DNA from: Thermoplasmata archaeon
GTDB lineage: Archaea; Thermoplasmatota; E2; JACPAO01; JAHFTW01
Length of the DNA stretch: 56,687 nt
Assembly: GCA_034667725.1 (NCBI GenBank)
Contig: JAXDQS010000011.1
Span: forward strand, 1 to 56,687
Direction: 5' to 3'
Part shown: positions 8,887-48,558 of the stretch, in pieces
Layout of the letters: each line of letters starts with the position of its first letter
How positions within the stretch are numbered: the stretch's first letter is position 1
Position numbers and translations under genes: made by a program
Notes under the pieces: model-generated
The model's database searches: none
Told to the model about the DNA's origin: nothing
Seen by the model: the letters and a program-made list of their open reading frames with translations, nothing else

Positions 8887-9586
8887 AGGGACGGGATGGG
8901 AGCAGGGCCGGCTTCGGCTCGACGTGCCAGGCCTGGACCGTCCAGGTCGCCCGGCTCGCGGTCGCGACCACGTCGGCGGCGTCCACCACGAGGCGATGCC
9001 CGTAGGCGGGGCTGTCCAGCACGAGGGTCTCGTACTCGCCGCCCTCGCCGGCCACGTGGGGACGGGCGGAGTGGTGGCGCATCGCGTCCAGCTTGGCGGC
9101 GTCGAGGCGGGCGCCCGCCCAGGCGTTGGGGACCCCGTCGGCGGCGGTGCGGCTGAACCGGATGTCCCAGCCGCCGGCCAGCATGGTGCGGACGTAGTGG
9201 GCGGCGTCCTTGTGCCACAGCGGCGTGAAAGACTTGAGGCCAAGCCGATGGCAGGCCAGCTCGATGCGGGTCCGTTGGTACTCGGAGGCCAAGGCGCCCG
9301 ACACCACCCCGTCGAGCCGGAACGCGGCGTGGGCCTGCGCGAGCGCCGCCTGCAAATCCTCGACCTCCTCCTCGGCGCCCTCGCGGACGGGGGCCTCCAA
9401 GAGAGGCAAGCCCAGGCAATGCGCGACGCCCCGCACCACCGGCAGGTTCGGGGTGTGGAACATCCAGGCGTCGTCCGCTGCCGGATGGAGCGCGAGGCCC
9501 GCCACCACCTCCCAGCCGAAGCCGCGCACGGTCTCGACGGCGCACACCGAGTCCTTGCCGCCCGACAGGAGAGCAAGGACGCGCAT
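8882..9586 (-). CDS. dph6: diphthine--ammonia ligase (Dph6 family)
   Basis: MRVLALLSGGKDS PP-loop, MFHTPN, SGALASEYQRTR, PLWH, GEGGEYETLV. Confidence 0.9.
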   Translation of the reverse strand: MRVLALLSGGKDSVCAVETVRGFGWEVVAGLALHPAADDAWMFHTPNLPVVRGVAHCLGLPLLEAPVREGAEEEVEDLQAALAQAHAAFRLDGVVSGALASEYQRTRIELACHRLGLKSFTPLWHKDAAHYVRTMLAGGWDIRFSRTAADGVPNAWAGARLDAAKLDAMRHHSARPHVAGEGGEYETLVLDSPAYGHRLVVDAADVVATASRATWTVQAWHVEPKPALLPSRPS

Positions 9587-10368
9587 CAGGGCAGGTCCTC
9601 GAGGCGGCCGTCGCGCAGCGTGGGCCGGAACTCGCGGGCGGGGGCCAGGTCGTCCAGGTCCATGTCCACGACGATGCGCCCCGGCTCCATGCCAGGCGTG
9701 CGGCCCATCAGGGTCCCGCGGGGGCTGTGCGCCTGGGCGCCGCCCCAGAACACCAAGGCGTCCTGCGGGCCGGCGACGTTGCTGTAGCCGACGAAGCAGG
9801 CGTTCTCGATGGCGCGGGCGGCCAGCAGGGCCTCGAAGAAGCGCTGGCTGGTGCTTGGGCTGGCGCTGATGTTCAGCAGGATGTCGGCCCCCGCGAGGGT
9901 CTGCGCGCGCGAGAACTCGGGGAAGAACAGGTCGTAGCAGATGCCGATGCCCACCTTGCCGACGGGCGTGTCCCAGACCGGGCTGCCGCGTCCAGGCCGG
10001 AAGAACAGCCCCTCCTGGAACGTGGTGAAGGTCGCCAGCGCCCGCTTGTCGTAGGCCGCCTCGACGCCGTCGGGGCCCACCAGGAACGCGCTGTTGGCCG
10101 TGACGCCCGCCCGCAGCTTGCGCGGCCCGCCGACGATGGCGTGCGCCTTCGCCTTCTTGCAAGCCTTCGCGAGTGGCGCCCAGCGCTCGTCGTCGTCCGT
10201 GAGCGCCAGCCGCTGGACGTCGTCGCCGATGGCGTAGCCCGACGCGAACATCTCGGGGAACACCACCAGTTCGGCCTCCTTGGCGGCCACCGCGTTGGCG
10301 ACGGCCCCAAGGTTCGCGGCCACGTCGCCGAGCCGCGGCGTCGCGGCGTGCAGGGCGATGCGGGCCAC
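9586..10368 (-). CDS. carbon-nitrogen hydrolase (nitrilase superfamily), likely glutaminase partner of NadE
   Basis: VVFPEM, YDK, GICYDLFFPE catalytic E-K-C triad; NISASP; RAIEN. Confidence 0.88.
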   Translation of the reverse strand: MARIALHAATPRLGDVAANLGAVANAVAAKEAELVVFPEMFASGYAIGDDVQRLALTDDDERWAPLAKACKKAKAHAIVGGPRKLRAGVTANSAFLVGPDGVEAAYDKRALATFTTFQEGLFFRPGRGSPVWDTPVGKVGIGICYDLFFPEFSRAQTLAGADILLNISASPSTSQRFFEALLAARAIENACFVGYSNVAGPQDALVFWGGAQAHSPRGTLMGRTPGMEPGRIVVDMDLDDLAPAREFRPTLRDGRLEDLP

Positions 10369-35699: not shown

Positions 35700-36473
35700 A
35701 AGGGCCCCTATCCCTACGAGCCGACGCCGCCCCACCCGGGCGAGCGCCAGCCGGGCAGCGAGTCGCTGCTGTCCCGCCGCAGCTTCATCCGCAACATCGT
35801 GCGCATCGGCGTCGCGGGCGCCGTCATCCCCGGCACGCTGACCCAGCTGCTGCCCGCCGTCGCCCCCGCCGGCGCCGGCGCGGGCGCCGCCGGCCCCGTC
35901 ATCAAGCGCGACCCCAAGACGAACGCCAAGACGCCCATCACCATCAAGGACCTGGGCAACGACCCCGTCGTCGGCGAATGGGGCTTCCTGCCCGCCATCA
36001 TCTACCGCGTCAAGGCCTCCAAGCTGGAAGGCTCGACCAAGCAGCGCGGCTACAACACGGGCCAGTTCGCGGTCGCGGACCCCGTCGACCCCAGCTTCGC
36101 GATCATGGTCTACCGCGGCAAGTGCAAGCACCTCGGCTGCACCGTCGGCTGGAACGGCGGCCTCGGCGCCTCCAAGGACATCGAGGACTACGACGGCGAC
36201 GGCGTGCCCGACGGCCGCATCCTCTGCCCCTGCCACCAAGGCCAGTACGACATCTACGACCTCGCCAAGAACGTCCCCGGCACCCCGCCGCCGGCGCCCT
36301 TGGACGTCATCCGCATCACCATCGGCGACTTCAACGACCCAGACGGCAAGATCGCGTCCGCGACCGGCGCCATCATCGGCACCGAGGTCCTGGTGCAAGG
36401 CGCCTACCTCGACGCCAACCAGGAAGGCAAGGGCGGCGCCTACGTGCTCGGCTCCCAGGCGGGCGTGGTCTGA
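35694..36473 (+). CDS. Rieske [2Fe-2S] subunit of bc-type complex
   Basis: Tat motif SRRSFIR, CKHLGC and CPCHQG. Confidence 0.93.
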   Translation: MAKGPYPYEPTPPHPGERQPGSESLLSRRSFIRNIVRIGVAGAVIPGTLTQLLPAVAPAGAGAGAAGPVIKRDPKTNAKTPITIKDLGNDPVVGEWGFLPAIIYRVKASKLEGSTKQRGYNTGQFAVADPVDPSFAIMVYRGKCKHLGCTVGWNGGLGASKDIEDYDGDGVPDGRILCPCHQGQYDIYDLAKNVPGTPPPAPLDVIRITIGDFNDPDGKIASATGAIIGTEVLVQGAYLDANQEGKGGAYVLGSQAGVV

Positions 36474-37309
36474 TGGCCGACCCCGTTCCCCCCGCACCGG
36501 CGGCCCCCGCGGACCCGCGCCAGCACAAGAAGGGCAAGCGCGCCTACGAGCAGCTTGCCAAGGAGAAGAAGCTCGGCCTGTTCGCGCGCGTCTACCTGAT
36601 GACGCTGGCCTACCTCGACGACTCCATCCGCATCCGGAACCACATCGACGCGGCCAAGGCGGCGTCGCTGTCGATCCAGCGCCAGCTGCCCCGCAGCCAC
36701 ACCGAACGCTACAAGCTGCGCACCATCTGGTACTGGTACCCGCTCTACTGCCTCGGCGGCCTCGCCTTCATCTCGTTCCTGATCCTCACGATCTCGGGCG
36801 TCGTCCTCGCGCTCTACTACATCCCGCACTACGAGCCGCAAGAAGTGTTCGCGGCCCGCGACTCGGTGCAGTTCATCATGGACAAGGTCACGCTCGGCTA
36901 CGTGCTGCGCGGCGTCCACCACTGGGGCGCCCACCTCATGGTCGCCTGCGTCTTCCTGCACATGATGCGCGTCTACTTCGTGGGCGCCTACAAGAAGCCC
37001 CGCGAGCTGAACTGGGTGCTGGGCGTCGCCCTCATCGGCATCACGTTCTTCTTCGCCTACTCGGGCTACCTGCTCCCCGCCGACCAGCTCGCCATCGCGG
37101 CCGCCACCATCGGCCAGAACATGTTCGGCAGCATCCCCGTCCTAGGAGAAACGCTCGCCAAGATCATGTTCGGCGGCACCGACATCAACGCCGGCCTCAT
37201 CCCCCGCATGTACGTCCTCCATGTGTGGATCCTGCCGTTCGTCCTGTTCGGCCTCATGGTCCTCCACATGTTCATCGTCTGGCTCCAAGGCATGGCGGAG
37301 CCCCACTGA
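36473..37309 (+). CDS. cytochrome b (b6-like N-terminal part)
   Basis: LGGLA..SGVVLALYY, RGVHHWGAHLM..LHMMR, RELNW, SGYLLP, YVLHVW..LH. Confidence 0.95.
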   Translation: MADPVPPAPAAPADPRQHKKGKRAYEQLAKEKKLGLFARVYLMTLAYLDDSIRIRNHIDAAKAASLSIQRQLPRSHTERYKLRTIWYWYPLYCLGGLAFISFLILTISGVVLALYYIPHYEPQEVFAARDSVQFIMDKVTLGYVLRGVHHWGAHLMVACVFLHMMRVYFVGAYKKPRELNWVLGVALIGITFFFAYSGYLLPADQLAIAAATIGQNMFGSIPVLGETLAKIMFGGTDINAGLIPRMYVLHVWILPFVLFGLMVLHMFIVWLQGMAEPH

Positions 37310-37318
37310 GGTGCAACC

Positions 37319-38038
37319 ATGGGCAAACTCGCGGACCTGACCAACCTCTACGTCGCCACCAAGGTCAAGCTCGAGACCTCGCGCCCCGTCAAGCGCCAGA
37401 AGGCCGTCGAAGGCACCACCCTCGGAGACGAACTCATCCGCGACGGCGTCCTCATCGCCTTCATGGTCGGCGCCATCTTCCTGCTCATCGCCATCGTGCC
37501 GCCGCCGCTCCACCACGGCTACGACATGACCAAGCCGCCCAAGTACGTCAAGCCAGACTGGTACCTGCTCTGGTCGCTCGGCCCCATCTTCTTGGCAAAG
37601 TGGGCCATCCCCAACCCCGGCATCCCGTTCCTGCCCGACCCCTTGATCAACACGAAGTTCCTGGGCACGATCTTGGTGAACGTGGCCTTCATCGCCTTGA
37701 TGCTCGTGCCCTTCATCGCGAAAGGCAAAGCAAGGCGTCCCATCGAATCGCCCTTGAATGCCGCCATGGGCGTCTTCGGCCTGGCGTTCATCTGGTGGAT
37801 GTCCATCGTCGGCATCGCCGACATCCTGTTCGCCTACGAAGTCCAGCCTTACCACGGGCACGTGCATTGGCTGCTCGAGACGCAGAAAGTCCCCGACCCA
37901 GGCGAACTGATCAATTGGTTGGGTGTGCTGAGCTTACAGCAGACTTTGTTGTGCACGTTCTTGACATACTGGTTGATCAAGAGGCACAGGCCGAAGTACG
38001 AAAGCAAGCTGAATGCGACGTATTTCAAGGTCCGGTAG
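37319..38038 (+). CDS. cytochrome b C-terminal / subunit IV-like protein
   Basis: KPDWY (PEWY variant), LVPFI, several TM helices. Confidence 0.85.
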   Translation: MGKLADLTNLYVATKVKLETSRPVKRQKAVEGTTLGDELIRDGVLIAFMVGAIFLLIAIVPPPLHHGYDMTKPPKYVKPDWYLLWSLGPIFLAKWAIPNPGIPFLPDPLINTKFLGTILVNVAFIALMLVPFIAKGKARRPIESPLNAAMGVFGLAFIWWMSIVGIADILFAYEVQPYHGHVHWLLETQKVPDPGELINWLGVLSLQQTLLCTFLTYWLIKRHRPKYESKLNATYFKVR

Positions 38039-38099
38039 CGCCCCCGCTCCCGCTCGCGTCTGACAAGTCTGAAGTGCAACTCATTGGGTGCGTGTTTCC

Positions 38100-39330: not shown

Positions 39331-40752
39331 ATGCACCCGTTGCGTCCCTTCGCCGCGCTTCTGCTTCTGGGAGCCTTGGCTTTCGCTGGCTGTGTCACCC
39401 CCGACCCGGAGCCCACGCCCGACTTGCCGTCCAAGCCGTTCACGCCCTACGTGCCCTTCGTGACCATCGTCCCCGAGGACGTCATGTCGTTCACGCAGTC
39501 GGTCGTCACCCCTGCCCAGGGCATCGCGTCAGACCTGTACGAGCCGACGATGGAGGTCTCGCAGACCGGCACCATCTACGTGGCGGGCCACGTCATCGGC
39601 GCGGCCACCACCGGCACGCCGGCCTACTTCAGCAACGACGGCGGCGCCACCTGGGCCCCGCTGCCGTTTGCCGGCCCCGCCGCCGCCCCGCCCCCGCTGC
39701 AGGGTTCCCAGCCGCCGCCTGGCGACGAGGGCTTCCTCGTGGCTGGCGACAACGGCGAGGCCTGGATGGCGGACATCTACGCCGCCGGCTTCTCGGTCAC
39801 GGGCTGGTGCAACGACGGTGGCGAGCAGTGCTACGACAACCGCTACGCCTACGACCGCACCGCCGCCGTGGACGCGCCGTGCCGGCCGGTCACGAGCCTC
39901 AACGACCGCCCCTGGGCGGCCTACGCCAACGGCACGCTGCTGCTGGTCAACAACCCTGGCGGCGGCCCGATGCAGATTGGCGTCATGCAGGTCCCGCCCG
40001 CGACACCGGTCGGCCTGTTCGACCCTGTCACCGGCCCCGTCTGGAACCTGTGCGCCAGCCCTGACGGCTGGATTCCGGGCGTCCCCGCCATGCGCGGCGA
40101 CGGCTTCTTCGCCGTGCCCCAGATGACCGGCAGCGGCGCGCAGGAGCGCCTCACCGTCGTCACGGGCAACGCCGCCGACATCTTCGACGTCCAGGTCCGC
40201 GACGTGTTCCACGTCTCGAGCGCCTACGGCGGCACCAGCAACGGTGGCCGCACCGCGTTCGGCACGGACGGCACGCTGTTCGTCGGCGCCTACAACAACA
40301 CCAAGGGCGCCAGCGTGGACAAGATGGAGGGCCGCTTCATCCTGGCCGCCACCACCGACGACGGCGAATCGTTCGTCAACGTGACCTTCGTCACGGGCCG
40401 CCCGGTGCGCTCGCTCTACCTCGACAGCAACATGAACGGCCCCGGCGCCCTCGTGACCTGGTCGCAGCTCGGCGACACCGCGGACACCAGCGACTGGTTC
40501 GTCGCCCACGTCTTCGTCGGCCCGAACGGCGAGCCCGTGCTGAAGAACATCAGCCTCGCCGTCAACGAAGGCCCGCACTCCTCGGCCCACGTCATGGGCG
40601 CCTCCGCCGGACCCGACGGCCGCGCCTACTTCGTGAACTTCCAGGACTCGGCGGACCCCGCGGAGTACCTCGGCAGCAACCCGATCAGCGTGTGGATCCA
40701 GAAGGACGGCCCGACGCTGCCGGTCGCGATGGACGCGGTGGCTGCGGCCTAG
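39331..40752 (+). CDS. lipoprotein with Asp-box (BNR/sialidase-like) beta-propeller
   Basis: FAGC lipobox; SNDGGATW and TTDDGESF; NDRPW; CTTAAG box at 39302-39307. Confidence 0.75.
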   Translation: MHPLRPFAALLLLGALAFAGCVTPDPEPTPDLPSKPFTPYVPFVTIVPEDVMSFTQSVVTPAQGIASDLYEPTMEVSQTGTIYVAGHVIGAATTGTPAYFSNDGGATWAPLPFAGPAAAPPPLQGSQPPPGDEGFLVAGDNGEAWMADIYAAGFSVTGWCNDGGEQCYDNRYAYDRTAAVDAPCRPVTSLNDRPWAAYANGTLLLVNNPGGGPMQIGVMQVPPATPVGLFDPVTGPVWNLCASPDGWIPGVPAMRGDGFFAVPQMTGSGAQERLTVVTGNAADIFDVQVRDVFHVSSAYGGTSNGGRTAFGTDGTLFVGAYNNTKGASVDKMEGRFILAATTDDGESFVNVTFVTGRPVRSLYLDSNMNGPGALVTWSQLGDTADTSDWFVAHVFVGPNGEPVLKNISLAVNEGPHSSAHVMGASAGPDGRAYFVNFQDSADPAEYLGSNPISVWIQKDGPTLPVAMDAVAAA

Positions 40753-40929
40753 TTCCAGCCGATCGGCGCCAGGACCTGGGTCCAGCCCATAGTTGAACCG
40801 CGTGTCCGGTGCGGGCGTGGCTTGCAAGGTCCCGCGACGATTCCTCCTCCTCTTTCTTCCTGGTTCCTCGCCGCCGATGGCGCCTGCACGCCGCCGTCCT
40901 TGGCCCATGTCCCCTCGAAGACCGGGGGC

Positions 40930-42042
40930 ATGGCCTTCGTGCTGGGAACCGTCCGCCTTGCGGCCTTGCGGTTCAAGTCGCACCGCTTCAACCCGCGCGA
41001 GCCGAGCGAGCAGCGCGTCCTCGAGCTTATGGACAGCGTGCGGCGGCTGTCGCTGTTGAACCCGCTCGTCTGCGCTTACTTGGCTCCCGACGAGCGCGGC
41101 GCGGACGACGACCTGGTGGTGCTCATCGATGGTCGCCACCGCCACGAGGCGCTGGTCCGCCTGGCCCAAGAAAACCCCGAGTGGGCGGCGCGGGCCCGCG
41201 TGGACGTCAAGGTCTACCTCGGCCTGTCGCGCAGCCAGCTCCTGGTGCTGGCGACCTACCTCAACCGCAACCGGGCGGCGCTGAAGAAGGGCGAATACTA
41301 CCAGAGTGTCGCGCGCATCTACGACGAGCGCGCGCGGGAGCTTGCCCGCCGCGGCGCGCCGCCCACCGAGCGCGCGGTCTTCCGCGACCTGCATGGCCGC
41401 GAATTGGCCAACCGCGACTTCGACCTCAGCATCGGCCGGCTGGTCGGGCTGGCGGCGTTCGCGCGCCAGCCGCAGCCGTCGTGGTGGCCGCTCGTGGGCA
41501 GCCACCAGAACCAGTTGCTCGGCCCCGAGTCCAGGATGCAGGGCTTCGCGCCGCTGACGGCCGGCAACCTGGCCGAGCTGCTGCGGCCGCTGTGCCGCGA
41601 CCGGCCGTACGACGACACGGGCGCGTCGCGGCGGCAGGAGCTGCGCAACGTCCTGCGGCTCGGCACCGTGTTCCGGCGGCATTGCCTGGCGCCGTTGGCC
41701 GACCGCGCCGCCAGCCGCACGAGCGTCGCGTGCAAGCACTGGATGGTGGCCGCGTTCGGGCGCATCCTCGCGGCCTCCAGCCTGTTTCCGGCCGCGCCCG
41801 CCGTCGCGCCGTTGGCGGGGCGGTTCGTGGACTGGGGCGCGGTCGACCTCGTCGTCCAACACTATGGCGACGTCGCGGAGGAGCAGGCGGCCGTCGTGGC
41901 GAACTACCGCGCCACCAGCCGGGACGAGTTCCTCGCCAAGGCCTGGAGCCACCAGACCCAGCGCGACCAGGTGGCGGTGCCGTTGCTGCGGGAACTGCAG
42001 CGGCGCGTGCCGCCCGACCGGGTGGCGTTCAGGTCGCCTTGA
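40930..42042 (+). CDS. DGQHR/ParB-like domain protein (DndB/DpdB-related)
   Basis: NPLV...LVVLIDGRHRHEAL...VKVY...LN pattern of the DGQHR/ParB-Srx fold. Confidence 0.65.
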   Translation: MAFVLGTVRLAALRFKSHRFNPREPSEQRVLELMDSVRRLSLLNPLVCAYLAPDERGADDDLVVLIDGRHRHEALVRLAQENPEWAARARVDVKVYLGLSRSQLLVLATYLNRNRAALKKGEYYQSVARIYDERARELARRGAPPTERAVFRDLHGRELANRDFDLSIGRLVGLAAFARQPQPSWWPLVGSHQNQLLGPESRMQGFAPLTAGNLAELLRPLCRDRPYDDTGASRRQELRNVLRLGTVFRRHCLAPLADRAASRTSVACKHWMVAAFGRILAASSLFPAAPAVAPLAGRFVDWGAVDLVVQHYGDVAEEQAAVVANYRATSRDEFLAKAWSHQTQRDQVAVPLLRELQRRVPPDRVAFRSP

Positions 42043-43642
42043 CCATGAGCCGCGGGACTTGGGCGAGGTCGTCGACCACGTTGTCCGAGAACGACTGCAC
42101 GACGGGCCCGAAGACGTTCATGTACGGCTTGTTCGGCAGGTAGGCGATGCTGCGCGCGTACTTCTTGTGGATCACGTTGAGCACGTTCGCGGTGCGCAGC
42201 TTGAGCTGGTTGCGGTGGATGTCGCTGACCAGCCGCCCGAGCTGGAAGTCGTAGGCCATGATCGCCGGGTGGCTCTCGTGGGTCCAGTGGACGGGTCCGT
42301 AGAGGCCGCTCAGGGTGATGCGGTCGAAGTCGCGCCCCTCAAGGAGCCCTTCGTCGGCAAGCTGCTGGAGGACCAGGCGGTGGGTGCGGCTGTCCTTGTA
42401 GGGTCGCGTCTTGGAGCAGCCGAGGATCAGGAGGTTCTCGGAGCGCGGCTTGTATTGGCGCACCGGGAAGTCGTAGGTGGTCGCGGCCGGCGCCTGGATC
42501 GTGGGAGCGGTCGTCGGCGCGCGGGCCCTCATGCGCGCCGGCGGGATTTCCAGCCGCAGCCGCCAGGAGCCAAGGTTGTGCAGCCCGACCAGGGCGAGGA
42601 TGTCGGAGCGGTTGACGCGCTCGCCGGCCTTCGCGGACGGACGGTAGGCGGGCTTGGTCATGAGCTCGTGCACGAAGTCCGGCTCCAGCTGCTCAAGCCG
42701 GTGGCACGCGGCGCACGCGCACGCCAGCCGCTGGTGCGGGTCGTACTCCTGCCACCGCATCGTCTCGGGGTCGAAGACGCGCATCCGGAACGCCTTCTGC
42801 ACCCAGCTCGAGTTGTCGAACGAGACGGCGCGCGGCTTCCGGAGGCCCGCCGCGATGCGGCCGGTGACGCCCTCGCCGATACCGAAGGCGTGGAACGGCA
42901 CGTCGTCGCCGGCCTTGCGGTCGAGCCACGCCAGCACCTTGTTGGCGTTGGCCGCGACCATCTCGGGCCGCGACGCCAGCGGCACTTGGCTGCCGAGCGC
43001 GATGCCGACGTCGTCGCGCTTGAGCCAGCCCTTGGGCAGGGCGGCCTCCAGGCGCTTGAGATAGGCGGCCACCTCGTCCGGGTTGCGGCCGTGCACGACG
43101 GCGTACGCCCGGGTGCGGAAGCCGATGCTGTCGGTGTGCTTGGCCAGCCATGCCGCGTTGCCGATGCTCACCTTCCGGAGCCGCTGGGCGTCGGCGGGCC
43201 CGACCTTGGGCCCGATGGGGCTGTCGAGGCTGGCAAGCCGTTGCGGCCGGTACTTGGCCTGCAATTCCAGGATGTGCTCCGGCTTGACCTCCAGGCCCCA
43301 CTTGCTGAGGTCCATCTTGTCGGCGTGCAGCAGCTGGAAGCCGCCGCTGTCCACGAACACGTCGCGCCGCTCGCCGAAGGTCTGCCGAATCTCGTGGGCC
43401 AGGCGGGTGGCGTCGCCGTGGTCCTCGCACCAGTCGTCCCACGCCGCCAGGCTCAGGTTGTAGGTCGTGAAGTGGAGGCACTGCACCATGACGCGCGGGG
43501 CGTCGCTGACCGAGGCCAGGTGGCGCTTGACGAGCTTCCAGACGCCGCCGTTGCGCGCCAGCCCGGGCGGGCCCGTGAGCAGGTGGACGACGGGGAAGAA
43601 CGCGACCGGCGCGTCGGCGGCTTCGGCCTGCGTCCCTCCCAT
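42029..43642 (-). CDS. tRNA-guanine transglycosylase-fold protein fused to an ArcS/DUF5591-like domain
   Basis: VDSGGFQ, SLD.P, VVHG, IALG, HAFG, SFDNSS, CACAAC...HNL zinc site; C-terminal LGCSKTRPYKDSRTH...LSGLYGPV...YD. Confidence 0.85.
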   Translation of the reverse strand: MGGTQAEAADAPVAFFPVVHLLTGPPGLARNGGVWKLVKRHLASVSDAPRVMVQCLHFTTYNLSLAAWDDWCEDHGDATRLAHEIRQTFGERRDVFVDSGGFQLLHADKMDLSKWGLEVKPEHILELQAKYRPQRLASLDSPIGPKVGPADAQRLRKVSIGNAAWLAKHTDSIGFRTRAYAVVHGRNPDEVAAYLKRLEAALPKGWLKRDDVGIALGSQVPLASRPEMVAANANKVLAWLDRKAGDDVPFHAFGIGEGVTGRIAAGLRKPRAVSFDNSSWVQKAFRMRVFDPETMRWQEYDPHQRLACACAACHRLEQLEPDFVHELMTKPAYRPSAKAGERVNRSDILALVGLHNLGSWRLRLEIPPARMRARAPTTAPTIQAPAATTYDFPVRQYKPRSENLLILGCSKTRPYKDSRTHRLVLQQLADEGLLEGRDFDRITLSGLYGPVHWTHESHPAIMAYDFQLGRLVSDIHRNQLKLRTANVLNVIHKKYARSIAYLPNKPYMNVFGPVVQSFSDNVVDDLAQVPRLMVKAT

Positions 43643-43678
43643 CGAGGCGTCCGAGCCGGTCGCGGGATTTAGCCGCCG

Positions 43679-44737
43679 CTACAACGCCGCCAGCACCGAC
43701 TCGACCGCGGGCTTGACGTCGCCGGCCACCATGTAGGAGGCGCGCTTGGCGATGGGGTCGTTGGCCTCGCCGCCGATCGCGCAAATGGTGGGCTGGCCGT
43801 CGATGGCCTCCAGGAAGTCGAGGGCGCCGCGGACGCCGACGGCCACCAGCAGGCGCGGGGCGATGCGGTTGTAGTGCTCGCCGACGATGGGGGCCGTGGT
43901 GTCGTCCGCGAGGCCGCGTTCGACGATGCCGATGGTGACGGCGAACACGGCGTCGAGGCGCTGCGCGAGCCTGCGCGCCAGCTCCAGCTCGTCGCGGTCG
44001 CGGATGCGGGCGCCGGCCACCAGGACGCGCTCGGCCTTGGCGATCTTCGGGGCGGGCGGGGCGCGGCGGCCCAGCACCTCGATGGGCGCCAGCTTGCCGG
44101 CGTCGACCGCGAGGTCGTGCACCTTCGCGTTGCCGTAGGGGTCCTCCATCGGGGCGCGGAACAGGCCGGTCTGGACGGAGATGAACTGGGGCGCCTGCTG
44201 CATCGCGGTCACGACCTGGAGGCGGGAGGCGCCGCCGGACTCGTGCGCGACCTGGGCGAGGCGGCGGCTGGTGTCCACCTCGATCTTGGCGGCCCCGAGG
44301 CAGAAGCCGGTGGCGAGCCGGCTCGCGGCGTAGGCGGTGATGGCGTCGCCGGTGCGGCTCTGGAACACCAGCACCATCTCGGGGCGGCGCTTGCGGACGG
44401 CGGCCTCCAGGATGCGGGCGGTGTGGTCGATGGGCGCGTAGTCGGGCGCCTGGACGCGGTAGATGGTGTCGATCGGGAACTTCTTGAGCGCCGCGGTGGC
44501 CGGCTCCAGGTCGTCGCCGATCAAGAGCACCTCGACGCGGCAGCCAAGCTCGTCCGCGATGTAGCGGGCGCGGCCGACGAGCGCCAAGGTCTCGGGGTGG
44601 ACGCCGGCGGGGGTCGCGCGGCCGAGCACCAGGACGTTGCGCCAGTCGCTCGACTTGACGTCCTCCAGCGCCGCCGCCTTGTCCTCGCGCGGCGCCATCG
44701 TCTCGTAGATACCCGCCAGCCCGAGGTCGTCGCTCAC
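43679..44737 (-). CDS. etfA: electron transfer flavoprotein alpha-like (divergent)
   Basis: AERVLVAG, IAPRLLVAVGVRGA, NDPIAKRASY..GD; GTGA overlap with etfB. Confidence 0.75.
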   Translation of the reverse strand: MSDDLGLAGIYETMAPREDKAAALEDVKSSDWRNVLVLGRATPAGVHPETLALVGRARYIADELGCRVEVLLIGDDLEPATAALKKFPIDTIYRVQAPDYAPIDHTARILEAAVRKRRPEMVLVFQSRTGDAITAYAASRLATGFCLGAAKIEVDTSRRLAQVAHESGGASRLQVVTAMQQAPQFISVQTGLFRAPMEDPYGNAKVHDLAVDAGKLAPIEVLGRRAPPAPKIAKAERVLVAGARIRDRDELELARRLAQRLDAVFAVTIGIVERGLADDTTAPIVGEHYNRIAPRLLVAVGVRGALDFLEAIDGQPTICAIGGEANDPIAKRASYMVAGDVKPAVESVLAAL

Positions 44738-45524
44738 GCCTGCACCTCCTTCTCCAGCACCGGGCTGGGCGCGGCGCCGCGCTCGCCGATAAGGCTGCGG
44801 CTGCGCATCCGGCGCACCAAGGTCGCGCCGTCCACCTGCTCGAGGGTCCGGCTCTCGGTCGGCTGCTGCTCGATGCGGACCCGCTTGGTGGCGGGCTTGC
44901 CGCGGTCGAGCTCGTCGGCGGGCACCCGCAGCAGGCCGCGCGTGGCCCAGGCGTCGTGGATGCCGCCGGCGGGCGGCTGGCCGGCCTGGATGTCGCCCGC
45001 CGTCACGACGCATGGCCGCGGGATGCGCAGGTCGTAGTCGCCGAACGGGCTGTGGTACTGGATGCGGAAGCCGGCGCCTTCGGGCTTGATGCTGCGGACG
45101 CCGACGACGCACGGCAGCTCCAGTTGGCCGGCGAGGGCGGCGAGCGCGCCGGTGAAGCCGCTGAACTCGCTGCGGGCTGGGCCGAGGATGGCGTCGAACG
45201 GGCCGTTCTCGCGGTACACGCGGGCGATGGTGGCGGCGCGGGCGAGCGCGTCGGCCTCGACGTCGTGGGCGCCTTCGATGAGGATGCCTTGGTCGACGCC
45301 GTGCGCGAGCGCCTCGCGCAGCACCTCCTCGCCGGCGCCCTTGTCGACGTGGACGGCGACCAGCTCGGCGTCGGGCCGCAGCTGCAAGGCGAGCGTGATG
45401 GCGCGCGCCGACGGCTCCGACAGGACGCGGTCGAGGCCTTCGGTGTCGAGGGTGCCGCTGCTGCGGCGCAGTCGGATGCGCCCGAAGAAGGCGCCCGTGA
45501 CGGGGATGAGGATGCGCAGGCGGC

Positions 45525-45528
<4 letters not shown>
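44734..45528 (-). CDS. etfB: electron transfer flavoprotein beta-like (divergent)
   Basis: LREALAHGVDQGILI, DALARAATIA, LAGQLELPCV, PCVVT. Confidence 0.8.
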
Positions 45529-46739
<1,211 letters not shown>

Positions 46740-46750
46740 TGGACTCGCTC

Positions 46751-47575
46751 TTACTTGCCCTTGAACTCGGGGCTGCGCTTCTCGATGAAGGCGGTGACGC
46801 CCTCGACCAGGTCCTCGGTGGCGGCCAGGCGCTTGGCGGCCTCGGCCTCGACCTTGAGGGAGGCGGCGCGGTCGCTGGCGCGCATGGTGGCGTTGATGGC
46901 GGCCTTGGCCTCCTCGACCGCGAGCGGGGCGCCTTTGTGGATGATGGCGCGGGCGATGTCGATGGCGGCGCGGACCTCCTCGCCGTCGGGGACGATCTTC
47001 TGCACCAGGCCGATGCGCTGGGCCTCCTGGGCGTTGATCATCTGGCCGGTGAAGATGAGCTCCTTGGCCTTGGCGGCGCCGACGAGGCGGGGCATGCGGG
47101 TGCTGCCGCCCCAGGCCGGGATGAGGCCGATCCACACTTCGGGCTGGCCGTAGCGGGCGCGGTCGCTGGAGATGCGGATGTCGGCCGCCATGGCGAGCTC
47201 GCAGCCGCCTCCGAGCGCGAGGTTGTTGACCGCGGCGATGACGGGCTTGCGGCAGTCCTCGACGGCGTTGAACGCCTCGTGGCCGAGCTTGACCAGTTCC
47301 GCGGACTCGGAGGCGCCGACGCCGGCGAACGCCTTGAGGTCGGCGCCGGCGCAGAAGGCGTGGTTGCCGGCACCCGTGAGGACGACGGCGCGGACCTCGG
47401 GGTTCTTGGAGAGCGCCTCGAAGGTCGCCTTGATCTCCTTGAGGACGGCCGGTGACAGCGCGTTCACTGGCGCGTGGTCGAGGGTCACGATCGCGGTCTT
47501 GTTGTCGATCTTGACCTTGACGAACTCTCCTTTCTGCTGCTCGGTGGTGGTGGCTTGGGGGCTGCTCATGGTCAT
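46751..47575 (-). CDS. enoyl-CoA hydratase
   Basis: NALS, FCAGADL, ALGGGCEL, GQPEV.IGLIP. Confidence 0.95.
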   Translation of the reverse strand: MTMSSPQATTTEQQKGEFVKVKIDNKTAIVTLDHAPVNALSPAVLKEIKATFEALSKNPEVRAVVLTGAGNHAFCAGADLKAFAGVGASESAELVKLGHEAFNAVEDCRKPVIAAVNNLALGGGCELAMAADIRISSDRARYGQPEVWIGLIPAWGGSTRMPRLVGAAKAKELIFTGQMINAQEAQRIGLVQKIVPDGEEVRAAIDIARAIIHKGAPLAVEEAKAAINATMRASDRAASLKVEAEAAKRLAATEDLVEGVTAFIEKRSPEFKGK

Positions 47576-48558
47576 TCCTTCCTGTAGTCGTGAAAGCCGC
47601 GGCCGGACTTCTGGCCGAGGCGCCCGGCCGCGACCAGCTGCCGGACGATCTGGACGGGACGCTGCGGCACGACGCCGCCGTGCTGGGAGCGGATGGAGTC
47701 GCCGGCGTGCAGGATGACGTCGAGGCCGACGAGGTCCGCGAGCGCCAGGGGGCCCATCGGCATCCCGGCGCCGGCCTGCATGGCGAGGTCGATGTCCTTG
47801 GGCTTGGCGACCCCTTCCTCGTAGCAGGCGAACGCCTCGTTGAGCATGGGCGCCAGGATGCGGTTGACGAGGAAGCCGGGCCCCTCCTTGACCTGGACGG
47901 GCAGCAACGGGTAGCGGTGGTTGCGCATGGGCGCGAAGAAGTTGACCACGTCGTCCACGATGTCGGGGCGGCTCTCGATGCCGGGGATGACCTCGATGAG
48001 CGGCAGCGTCGTGGGCGGGTTGAAGAAGTGGACGCCGAGGAAGCGGCCGCGGCGGTTGGGCGGGACGGCGGTGGCCAGCTCGGAGACGGGCAGCGTGCTG
48101 GTGTTGGTGGCGAGGATGCAGTGCTCCGGCACCTTGTCCACCAGGTCGCCGAAGACCTTCTTCTTGAGCTGGAGGCTCTCGGGCGCCGCCTCGATGACAA
48201 GCTCCACCTTGTCGAAGCCGTCGAACGTCGTGGTCGGCGTGATCTTCTTCAAGAGGCGCTCGGCCCGGCCGGCGTCGAAGCTGGGCTTCAGGGTCGCGCG
48301 CGCCTTGGCCTTCTGCTCGTCGGTGAGCTGCACGCCGCTGCGCGACTCGAACTCGGAGATGGCGCGGTCGGCCTTGCCGGCCTGGAACGCCACCAGCTCG
48401 TCCAGGTCCTTGCGGATGGTTGCCATGCCCCGGTCGAGCGCGGCCTGGTCGATGTCCTTGAGGACGACGTTGACGTTGTTGAGGGCCAGCACCTCGGCGA
48501 TGCGGGCGCCCATGACCCCCGCCCCCAGGACTGCGGCACGGTCGACGAACAGCACCAT
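47572..48558 (-). CDS. 3-hydroxyacyl-CoA dehydrogenase
   Basis: GAGVMG, IEAAPE, TNTSTL, HFFNP, PGFLVNR, PMGP..LAD..GLD, GQKSGRGF. Confidence 0.95.
   Translation of the reverse strand: MVLFVDRAAVLGAGVMGARIAEVLALNNVNVVLKDIDQAALDRGMATIRKDLDELVAFQAGKADRAISEFESRSGVQLTDEQKAKARATLKPSFDAGRAERLLKKITPTTTFDGFDKVELVIEAAPESLQLKKKVFGDLVDKVPEHCILATNTSTLPVSELATAVPPNRRGRFLGVHFFNPPTTLPLIEVIPGIESRPDIVDDVVNFFAPMRNHRYPLLPVQVKEGPGFLVNRILAPMLNEAFACYEEGVAKPKDIDLAMQAGAGMPMGPLALADLVGLDVILHAGDSIRSQHGGVVPQRPVQIVRQLVAAGRLGQKSGRGFHDYRKE

Follow-up and report, generated by a model that had tools for sequence, protein, structure and literature searches.

A TGT–DUF5591 fusion gene and its ParB-like partner in a Thermoplasmata archaeon: candidate parts of a 7-deazaguanine DNA modification system

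Genes A, B and C

The stretch of DNA studied here (the window) comprises positions 1–56,687 of contig JAXDQS010000011.1, from the Thermoplasmata archaeon assembly GCA_034667725.1, and has a G+C content of about 71%. It carries two convergent genes, here called A and B, which were evaluated as candidate parts of a 7-deazaguanine modification system; A encodes a TGT-type base-exchange domain fused to an ArcS-type DUF5591 domain, and B a protein with a ParB/sulfiredoxin (Srx) fold (Table 1). The initial annotation, made from the sequence, had listed a TGT catalytic set and an ArcS-like C-terminal motif in A and the motif LIDGRHR in B, and all of these were found to be present and invariant in 55 relatives. 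Its remarks on the lack of a PUA domain in A and on a tail-to-tail overlap of 14 base pairs (bp) were likewise confirmed, by Pfam for the former and at 42029–42042 for the latter; in the closest relative, locus L009, the overlap is also 14 bp long (9583–9596).

Table 1. Features of the A–B locus and of the second locus; positions refer to the window unless contig C3 is named (aa, amino acids; nt, nucleotides).
Feature	Position	Strand	Description
Gene A	42029..43642	-	537 aa; TGT-type base-exchange domain fused to ArcS-type DUF5591; without C2 and PUA
TGT (TIM-barrel) domain of A	42527..43615	-	about aa 7/10-372; AlphaFold model
Catalytic and ligand residues of the TGT domain			D98, D276 catalytic; D140, H184 base-binding; C308/C310/C313/H355 zinc site
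Motifs of A	aa 98-355		DSGGFQ 98-103, LDSP 139-142, HAFG 251-254, SFD 274-276, CACAAC 308-313, HNL His 355
DUF5591 (ArcS C1 core) of A	42032..42481	-	aa 388-537; motif GC-X3-RPY-X2-S-X2-H
ArcS-type motif of A	aa 408-421		GCSKTRPYKDSRTH; GC-SKT-RPY-KD-S-RT-H
Gene B	40822..42042	+	406 aa; N-terminal ParB/Srx-fold domain, helical C-terminal part; start revised from 40930 to TTG 40822
ParB/Srx-like domain of B	40897..41286	+	about aa 26-155; NPR aa 57-59; DGRHR aa 103-107 (41128-41142)
A/B tail-to-tail overlap	42029..42042		14 bp
TAAAT box	43667..43671	-	25-29 nt upstream of the A ATG, just after the etfA stop; read from sequence
Second locus	contig C3, about 209,400-212,650 (L015:7401-10652)		between AsnC-type regulator and uvrA
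Gene C	contig C3, L015:8705-10042		intact

The sole Pfam match in A was to DUF5591 (amino acids 396–518, E = 5e-6, 26.8 bits at a cut-off of 26), with which the polypeptide terminates, and neither C2 nor PUA was matched. The TGT model PF01702 gave no match to A at E ≤ 1, below its gathering threshold; about 80 full-length relatives of A were found, and a precomputed PF01702 match was present in about one third of the relatives listed. The NCBIfam scores of A for ArcS, TgtA and DpdA were all negligible, with 22.3 bits for the ArcS model NF040592 (threshold 440 bits) and 13 bits (E = 0.034) for the DpdA model NF041059 (threshold 200 bits). The AlphaFold model of A, built on the alignment of 55 relatives, showed the TIM-barrel fold of TGT with a predicted local distance difference test score (pLDDT) of 91.8 and a predicted template modelling score of 0.90. 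Residues D98, S99, G100, G101, D140, H184, D276, C308, C310, C313 and H355 were invariant among these relatives, distant bacterial ones included, as were C409, P414, Y415 and S418 of the DUF5591 half, so that both catalytic centres of A look intact. The consensus of the ArcS C1 domain, PC-X3-KPY-X2-S-X2-H, is followed with glycine for proline and arginine for lysine, and the zinc-site and aspartate motifs line up with those of the genome's own ArcTGT. In a structure comparison with a viral library, the two halves of A were matched by two proteins of Vibrio phage nt-1, DpdA2 and the DUF5591 protein. The invariant His184 stands where the genome's own ArcTGT has glutamine and where DpdA has His181 (PMC10164549). 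The structural alignment of A starts at residue 2 of DpdA and at residue 23 of ArcTGT, which is consistent with a missing N-terminal beta lid, a feature that separates DpdA (PMC10164549). Neither the fold nor the hidden Markov model (HMM) scores tell a DpdA-like from an ArcTGT-like ancestry of the TGT domain.

The housekeeping enzymes of the same genome were found separately. A separate canonical tgtA and que genes, which the initial annotation had raised as a point to settle, are both present, and A is not the sole copy: the canonical ArcTGT has the TGT, C2 and PUA domains (PF01702, E = 2e-76), the canonical ArcS has DUF5591 (E = 7e-44) with C2 and PUA, and the genes queC and queD lie on contig C4, so that a supply of preQ0 is present. 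In the canonical ArcS the TGT half is degenerate, without the aspartate of the DSG motif, the LD motif and the cysteine cluster, all three of which A keeps. Since the canonical ArcTGT and ArcS exist separately, A is, judging from its residues, a third TGT paralog of the genome, not a housekeeping one, and has kept its two catalytic sets intact.

Gene B had been read as starting at ATG 40930. Its relatives share an N-terminal stretch, LP..L..W(L/F), with a nearly invariant tryptophan, and the window codes for this stretch 5' of that ATG; the B family profile matches the window from 40834 on. The start is therefore most likely TTG 40822, counted from which the tryptophan is W14. Window B had no match in Pfam or in NCBIfam, and its only PADLOC match was DndB (E = 0.012). 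Among 24 members of the B family, Pfam ParB_N was touched by six and GmrSD_N by four, and all NCBIfam matches were marginal: DGQHR (TIGR03187) in 6 of the 24 with a best E of 0.0097, Noc in five and ParB in five, the last two with somewhat better E-values than DGQHR. The family profile matched the solved structures of Noc (E = 0.0034) and sulfiredoxin, and the structure model of B reached a pLDDT of 91.6. B is a member of the ParB/Srx superfamily, and to this extent the initial description of B as DGQHR- or DpdB-like stood; membership in the DpdB, DndB or DGQHR families did not, the HMM matches being marginal and as weak as those for ParB and Noc, and B carries DGRHR, not DGQ(H/Q)R. Maximum likelihood resolved only the smaller part of the B family tree, leaving 12 of its 21 inner branches open, and for this reason no clades of the two B paralogs, B1 and B2, are claimed beyond pairwise identities.

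Relatives of A were collected from one genome per species over 185,579 species, and the best 80 of 142 were kept. B and C lie next to A in all seven Thermoplasmata and Micrarchaeota loci among these best 80, where identity to A is 35–47%, and directly adjacent to A on 7/7 metagenome contigs, the two sets sharing at least two contigs; C is about 440–520 amino acids long there. In two genomes of a sample of the phylum, G092 and G405, B likewise adjoins A, the latter possibly being the same contig as locus L038. In loci L012 and L034, C was called as 216 amino acids, and a longer open frame there matches the C profile. Two B paralogs occur on two of the seven metagenome contigs, and the direction of the genes differs between loci with the gene set constant. 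Both B and C were absent from the 73 bacterial and haloarchaeal loci among the best 80, at 23–31% identity to A. The conserved unit is the A–B–C trio in every other Thermoplasmata-type locus examined, and the proposal of a minimal two-gene system had to be given up in favour of a trio with the DAC-like C, encoded here on another contig. The initial annotation had held that the convergent orientation of A and B weakens their link; as the two are linked in every related archaeal locus examined, the orientation is no argument against it.

The C-terminal domain of C is DAC-like, with a diadenylate-cyclase fold: its family profile matched 7dfx/7dg0 (E = 0.0033) over the DGA and RHR region. The label rests on this match to PDB sequences, on the profile's matches to ordinary DAC proteins of about 285 amino acids in 13 related genomes, and on look-alikes in the ESM Atlas, which include bacterial DAC clusters, some with DACNH or DACNG domains; proteins of the DACNH/DACNG type have recently been linked to phage defence. 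Two C proteins had no Pfam match at E ≤ 0.1. Cyclase activity of C is uncertain, because the RHR motif is not conserved across the C family. Among the family's genomes, the C profile picked out an ordinary DAC in 13 of the 19 from other genera and in not one of the 12 further species of the window's genus; there, a canonical diadenylate cyclase may be missing, or may have diverged too far for the profile to pick it up.

Genomic setting and the second locus

No match to A or B was found in 31/31 other genomes of the family, including 12 same-genus species, and C was matched in those genomes only via the DAC region of ordinary small DAC proteins. Across the phylum, A was matched in 3 of 400 other sampled genomes. 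The interval 40823–43643 of the window had no match in any same-genus genome, and the flanking blocks 36000–38040 and 43669–48000 are kept in these genomes at separate places. A and B lie in a species-specific insert and are accessory genes, for which horizontal acquisition of the A–B system is the best explanation. The searches of A with tblastn gave no match among 50,697 phage records, and among plasmids only two haloarchaeal megaplasmids at 26–28% identity. The neighbours of the related loci include N6/N4 methyltransferases with a resolvase, a C5 methyltransferase with Vsr and BglII, SIR2, TIR and transposases; in the window, the pair is flanked by etf and acyl-CoA genes and by the gene of a secreted protein. 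As had been noted at the outset, no dpdC, que gene or nuclease is adjacent to the pair.

Gene A starts 36 bp past the stop codon of etfA on the same strand. The TAAAT box in this interval (Table 1) is, as read from the sequence, a possible archaeal TATA box for a leaderless A transcript, and A may be transcribed either from a leaderless promoter of its own or by read-through out of the etf operon.

Gene C of this genome belongs to a second locus, on contig C3, where it is preceded by an intact second B paralog, 45% identical to window B, and followed by a convergent fragment of a second A that retains the DUF5591 part and has lost the TGT domain. The reading frame of this fragment contains a TGA, with more stops upstream, and arginine and aspartate have taken the place of two invariant glycines (SGLYGPV to SRLFDPV); by these marks it is a dead pseudogene fragment. 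The intact copies in the genome, over the two loci, are one A, one C and two B. In the closest relative, L009 (64% identical in A and 59% in B), an operon of B2 and C lies on the other side of A, and the window locus looks like this arrangement minus the B2–C part. With the parts split over two loci and one intact copy each of A and C, the genome is a natural dissection of the system.

Compared with 12 same-genus genomes, the segment 38040–43668 is a synteny break. The cytochrome b block and the block of etf and acyl-CoA dehydrogenase genes lie apart from each other elsewhere in the genus, and the SRPBCC gene, the DHFR-like gene and the gene for the 473-amino-acid secreted protein match scattered places in the same-genus genomes. 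The last of these (39331–40752), upstream of B, was considered as a homolog of C and rejected: its product is secreted, matches the BNR repeat weakly and is unrelated to the system.

Proposed activity and alternative readings

Known cases of 7-deazaguanines in DNA are those of phages and viruses of archaea, which use DpdA alone or together with ArcS2, and those of the Dpd islands of bacteria. The nearest precedent for A is found in the viral pairs of DpdA and ArcS2 (DpdA2 and ArcS2 of Vibrio phage nt-1; Sulfolobus virus STSV2), which bring together the same two activities, a PUA-less DNA transglycosylase of the TGT family and a core consisting of DUF5591 only (PMC10516641, PMC6884629). When DpdA2 and ArcS2 of nt-1 were expressed in E. 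coli, 2'-deoxy-7-cyano-7-deazaguanosine (dPreQ0) and then 2'-deoxyarchaeosine (dG+) were formed in DNA (PMC10516641). A differs from these pairs in that both activities are fused in one polypeptide of a cellular gene, whereas the viral ArcS2 stands alone beside a separate DpdA, and in its partners, always ParB-like and usually also DAC-like, neither of which has been reported from viruses; the likeness in sequence is below BLAST detection. With the bacterial DpdA/DpdB/DpdC system (PMC10164549), A shares the active-site histidine of the DpdA type, at the Watson–Crick edge, and the lack of an N-terminal beta lid, and B shares the N-terminal ParB/Srx-fold domain of the DpdB/DndB/DGQHR family. However, A scores 13 bits against a DpdA cut-off of 200, B has DGRHR where DpdB has DGQQR and fails the DGQHR and DndB models, and neither dpdC nor the dpdD–K helicase and nuclease genes accompany the trio in the related loci or among the neighbours in the window. 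The product would be expected to differ from dADG (2'-deoxy-7-amido-7-deazaguanosine), since it would be tailored by DUF5591 and not by DpdC.

The archaeosine pathway of archaeal tRNA (PMC11298593) uses the same two domain families, the same precursor preQ0 and the same motif, C-X3-(K/R)PY-X2-S-X2-H. Its enzymes are built differently from A, the canonical ArcS with a degenerate TGT half, C2 and PUA, and the canonical ArcTGT with glutamine in the active site, the N-terminal lid, C2 and PUA. The haloarchaeal islands of the BRIGADE/Dpd-like type (bioRxiv 10.1101/2025.09.15.676423) contain distant fusions (25–28% identity) beside a PLD nuclease, helicases, QueC and DUF6884; these have partners of the restriction type and are without B and C, whereas in the clade of the window B and C are present and neither a nuclease nor a helicase is conserved. 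No description of a TGT–DUF5591 fusion with ParB-like and DAC-like partners was found in the literature, where the search turned up the BRIGADE preprint, the paper on the Dpd structure and those on phages.

On balance, we consider A and B to be probably parts of a horizontally acquired 7-deazaguanine modification system acting on DNA. The host QueC/D(/E) pathway would supply preQ0, and the TGT domain of A would flip out a DNA guanine and swap in preQ0, with D98 as acid/base and D276 as nucleophile. B, a presumed NTPase, could help to load or open the DNA in the way DpdB does for DpdA, which requires DpdB for base insertion (PMC10164549). The fused DUF5591 domain would then join an amine to the nitrile that the inserted base carries, giving dG+ or a lysine-type amidine adduct; these products are suggested because canonical ArcS moves lysine to preQ0 and ArcS2 of nt-1 gives dG+. 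For canonical ArcS, which transfers lysine to preQ0, a preQ0 nucleoside 5'-phosphate suffices as substrate (PMC11298593), and the ArcS core is therefore not bound to the shape of tRNA. The DAC-like C, encoded at the second locus, would probably be a sensor or regulator of the full system. The marks might serve for self-marking, anti-restriction or defence. Of the first proposals for this locus, Dpd-like base exchange on DNA remains the best fit, with DNA as the presumed target, and a defensive role was not borne out, as the related loci have only A, B and C in common, without a conserved nuclease or restriction partner.

Several points weigh against this assignment. The DUF5591 (PF17884) score of A is marginal, 26.8 against 26 bits, and B is not recognisable as DpdB or DndB in HMM searches. 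To finish archaeosine (G+), canonical ArcS depends on RaSEA, a partner of the radical-SAM type (PMC11298593). The window locus is without C, the usual neighbour of A and B, and is flanked by ordinary metabolic genes and not by genes of mobile elements. The family is so far known from genes, and a role in defence is without direct support, there being no restriction nuclease conserved with the trio.

It is unlikely that RNA is the target, with A as a mobile, PUA-less hybrid of ArcTGT and ArcS that puts archaeosine, or a base related to it, into tRNA, rRNA or an element-encoded RNA at a non-canonical site, and with B as a helper handling RNA or nucleotides. The fold of A, which is as near to ArcTGT as to DpdA, would agree with it. 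However, complete ArcTGT and ArcS genes are already present in the genome, A has the DpdA-type histidine in place of glutamine and is without the N-terminal lid, C2 and PUA, its constant partner B has a ParB fold, typical of proteins that handle DNA, and the distribution is patchy, often in islands with DNA methyltransferase or restriction genes.

An improbable alternative starts from type IV CBASS (a cyclic-oligonucleotide-based antiphage signalling system), in which QueC-like and TGT-like enzymes, Cap9 and Cap10, conjugate a deazaguanine to the cyclase (bioRxiv 10.1101/2025.04.06.647259). The trio would then be a DAC-based analogue for nucleobase–protein conjugation and signalling, DUF5591 coupling the preQ0 nitrile to an amine of C or B, either on a lysine side chain or at the N-terminus. 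We hold it to be just as doubtful that the TGT domain would hold the tagged protein or pass it to a target and so control the DAC-like enzyme. A variant, in which TGT would insert preQ0 with C or B attached into DNA and in this way hold a signalling enzyme at marked sites or switch it there, also has only a slim chance of being right. If the trio did act by conjugation, it would be a DAC-based archaeal counterpart of the deazaguanylation of type IV CBASS. In CBASS, however, the cyclase is a CD-NTase and not DAC-like, the trio has no QueC-like (Cap9) gene, and Cap10 is much farther from A than are DpdA and ArcTGT.

A loss of function of the pair in the window, with two cassettes, each acquired on its own, both in decay, would accord with the dead A copy at the second locus (in-frame TGA, TGT domain lost, invariant glycines replaced) and with the absence from the window of C, which goes with A in all other archaeal loci of this type, but it too is given little credence: window A and B are full-length open frames with every family-invariant residue kept, one intact A, one C and two B remain, so that the two loci could complement each other, and A has a plausible promoter box and sits directly behind the etf genes on the same strand.

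If the DNA modification system proposed here is real, cellular archaea would own a compact version of what is known from viruses and Dpd islands, with one polypeptide inserting and tailoring the base, helped by a ParB-like protein without sequence relation to DpdB and coupled to a DAC-like protein. Archaeosine-type chemistry would then extend from tRNA to archaeal chromosomes, a single gene could become a tool for writing marks of the dG+ type, and the question would be raised of what job a cyclase-like protein has in DNA modification.

The wider superfamily of TGT–DUF5591 fusions

When the TGT domain alone was searched against 1.84 billion cluster representatives, 110 clusters were obtained, 58 of them with DUF5591. 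The fusions of cyanobacteria were found in nine loci (L040–L071) with a GmrSD_N/DUF262 protein of the ParB superfamily and a HEPN protein (e.g., L059:15857–16978 and L071:5387–6061), and the GmrSD_N protein may do there what B does in the trio. Those of Poribacteria, in nine genomes (L062–L086), are accompanied by a radical-SAM enzyme resembling lysine-2,3-aminomutase and by a class-III aminotransferase (e.g., L066:14106–15248 and L082:12075–13358), neighbours which may stand for a different tailoring chemistry of the deazaguanine. Large DEAD helicases lie beside the fusion in 11 loci of several phyla. Haloarchaeal fusions have QueC, DUF6884, a protein of the HATPase type and another TGT-like gene as neighbours. 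Taken together, these neighbourhoods speak for a superfamily role that is directed at DNA and related to conflict. On a plasmid of Haladaptatus sp. YSMS36 (NZ_CP119784.1, 38026–63714; locus L032), three TGT-like genes of 352, 654 and 673 amino acids were observed, and the same stretch contains a PLD nuclease, a DEAD/DEAH helicase, DUF6884, an ATP-binding protein and an AAA protein of 1493 amino acids; it looks like an island of the BRIGADE/Dpd-like type containing fusions of the TGT–DUF5591 type.

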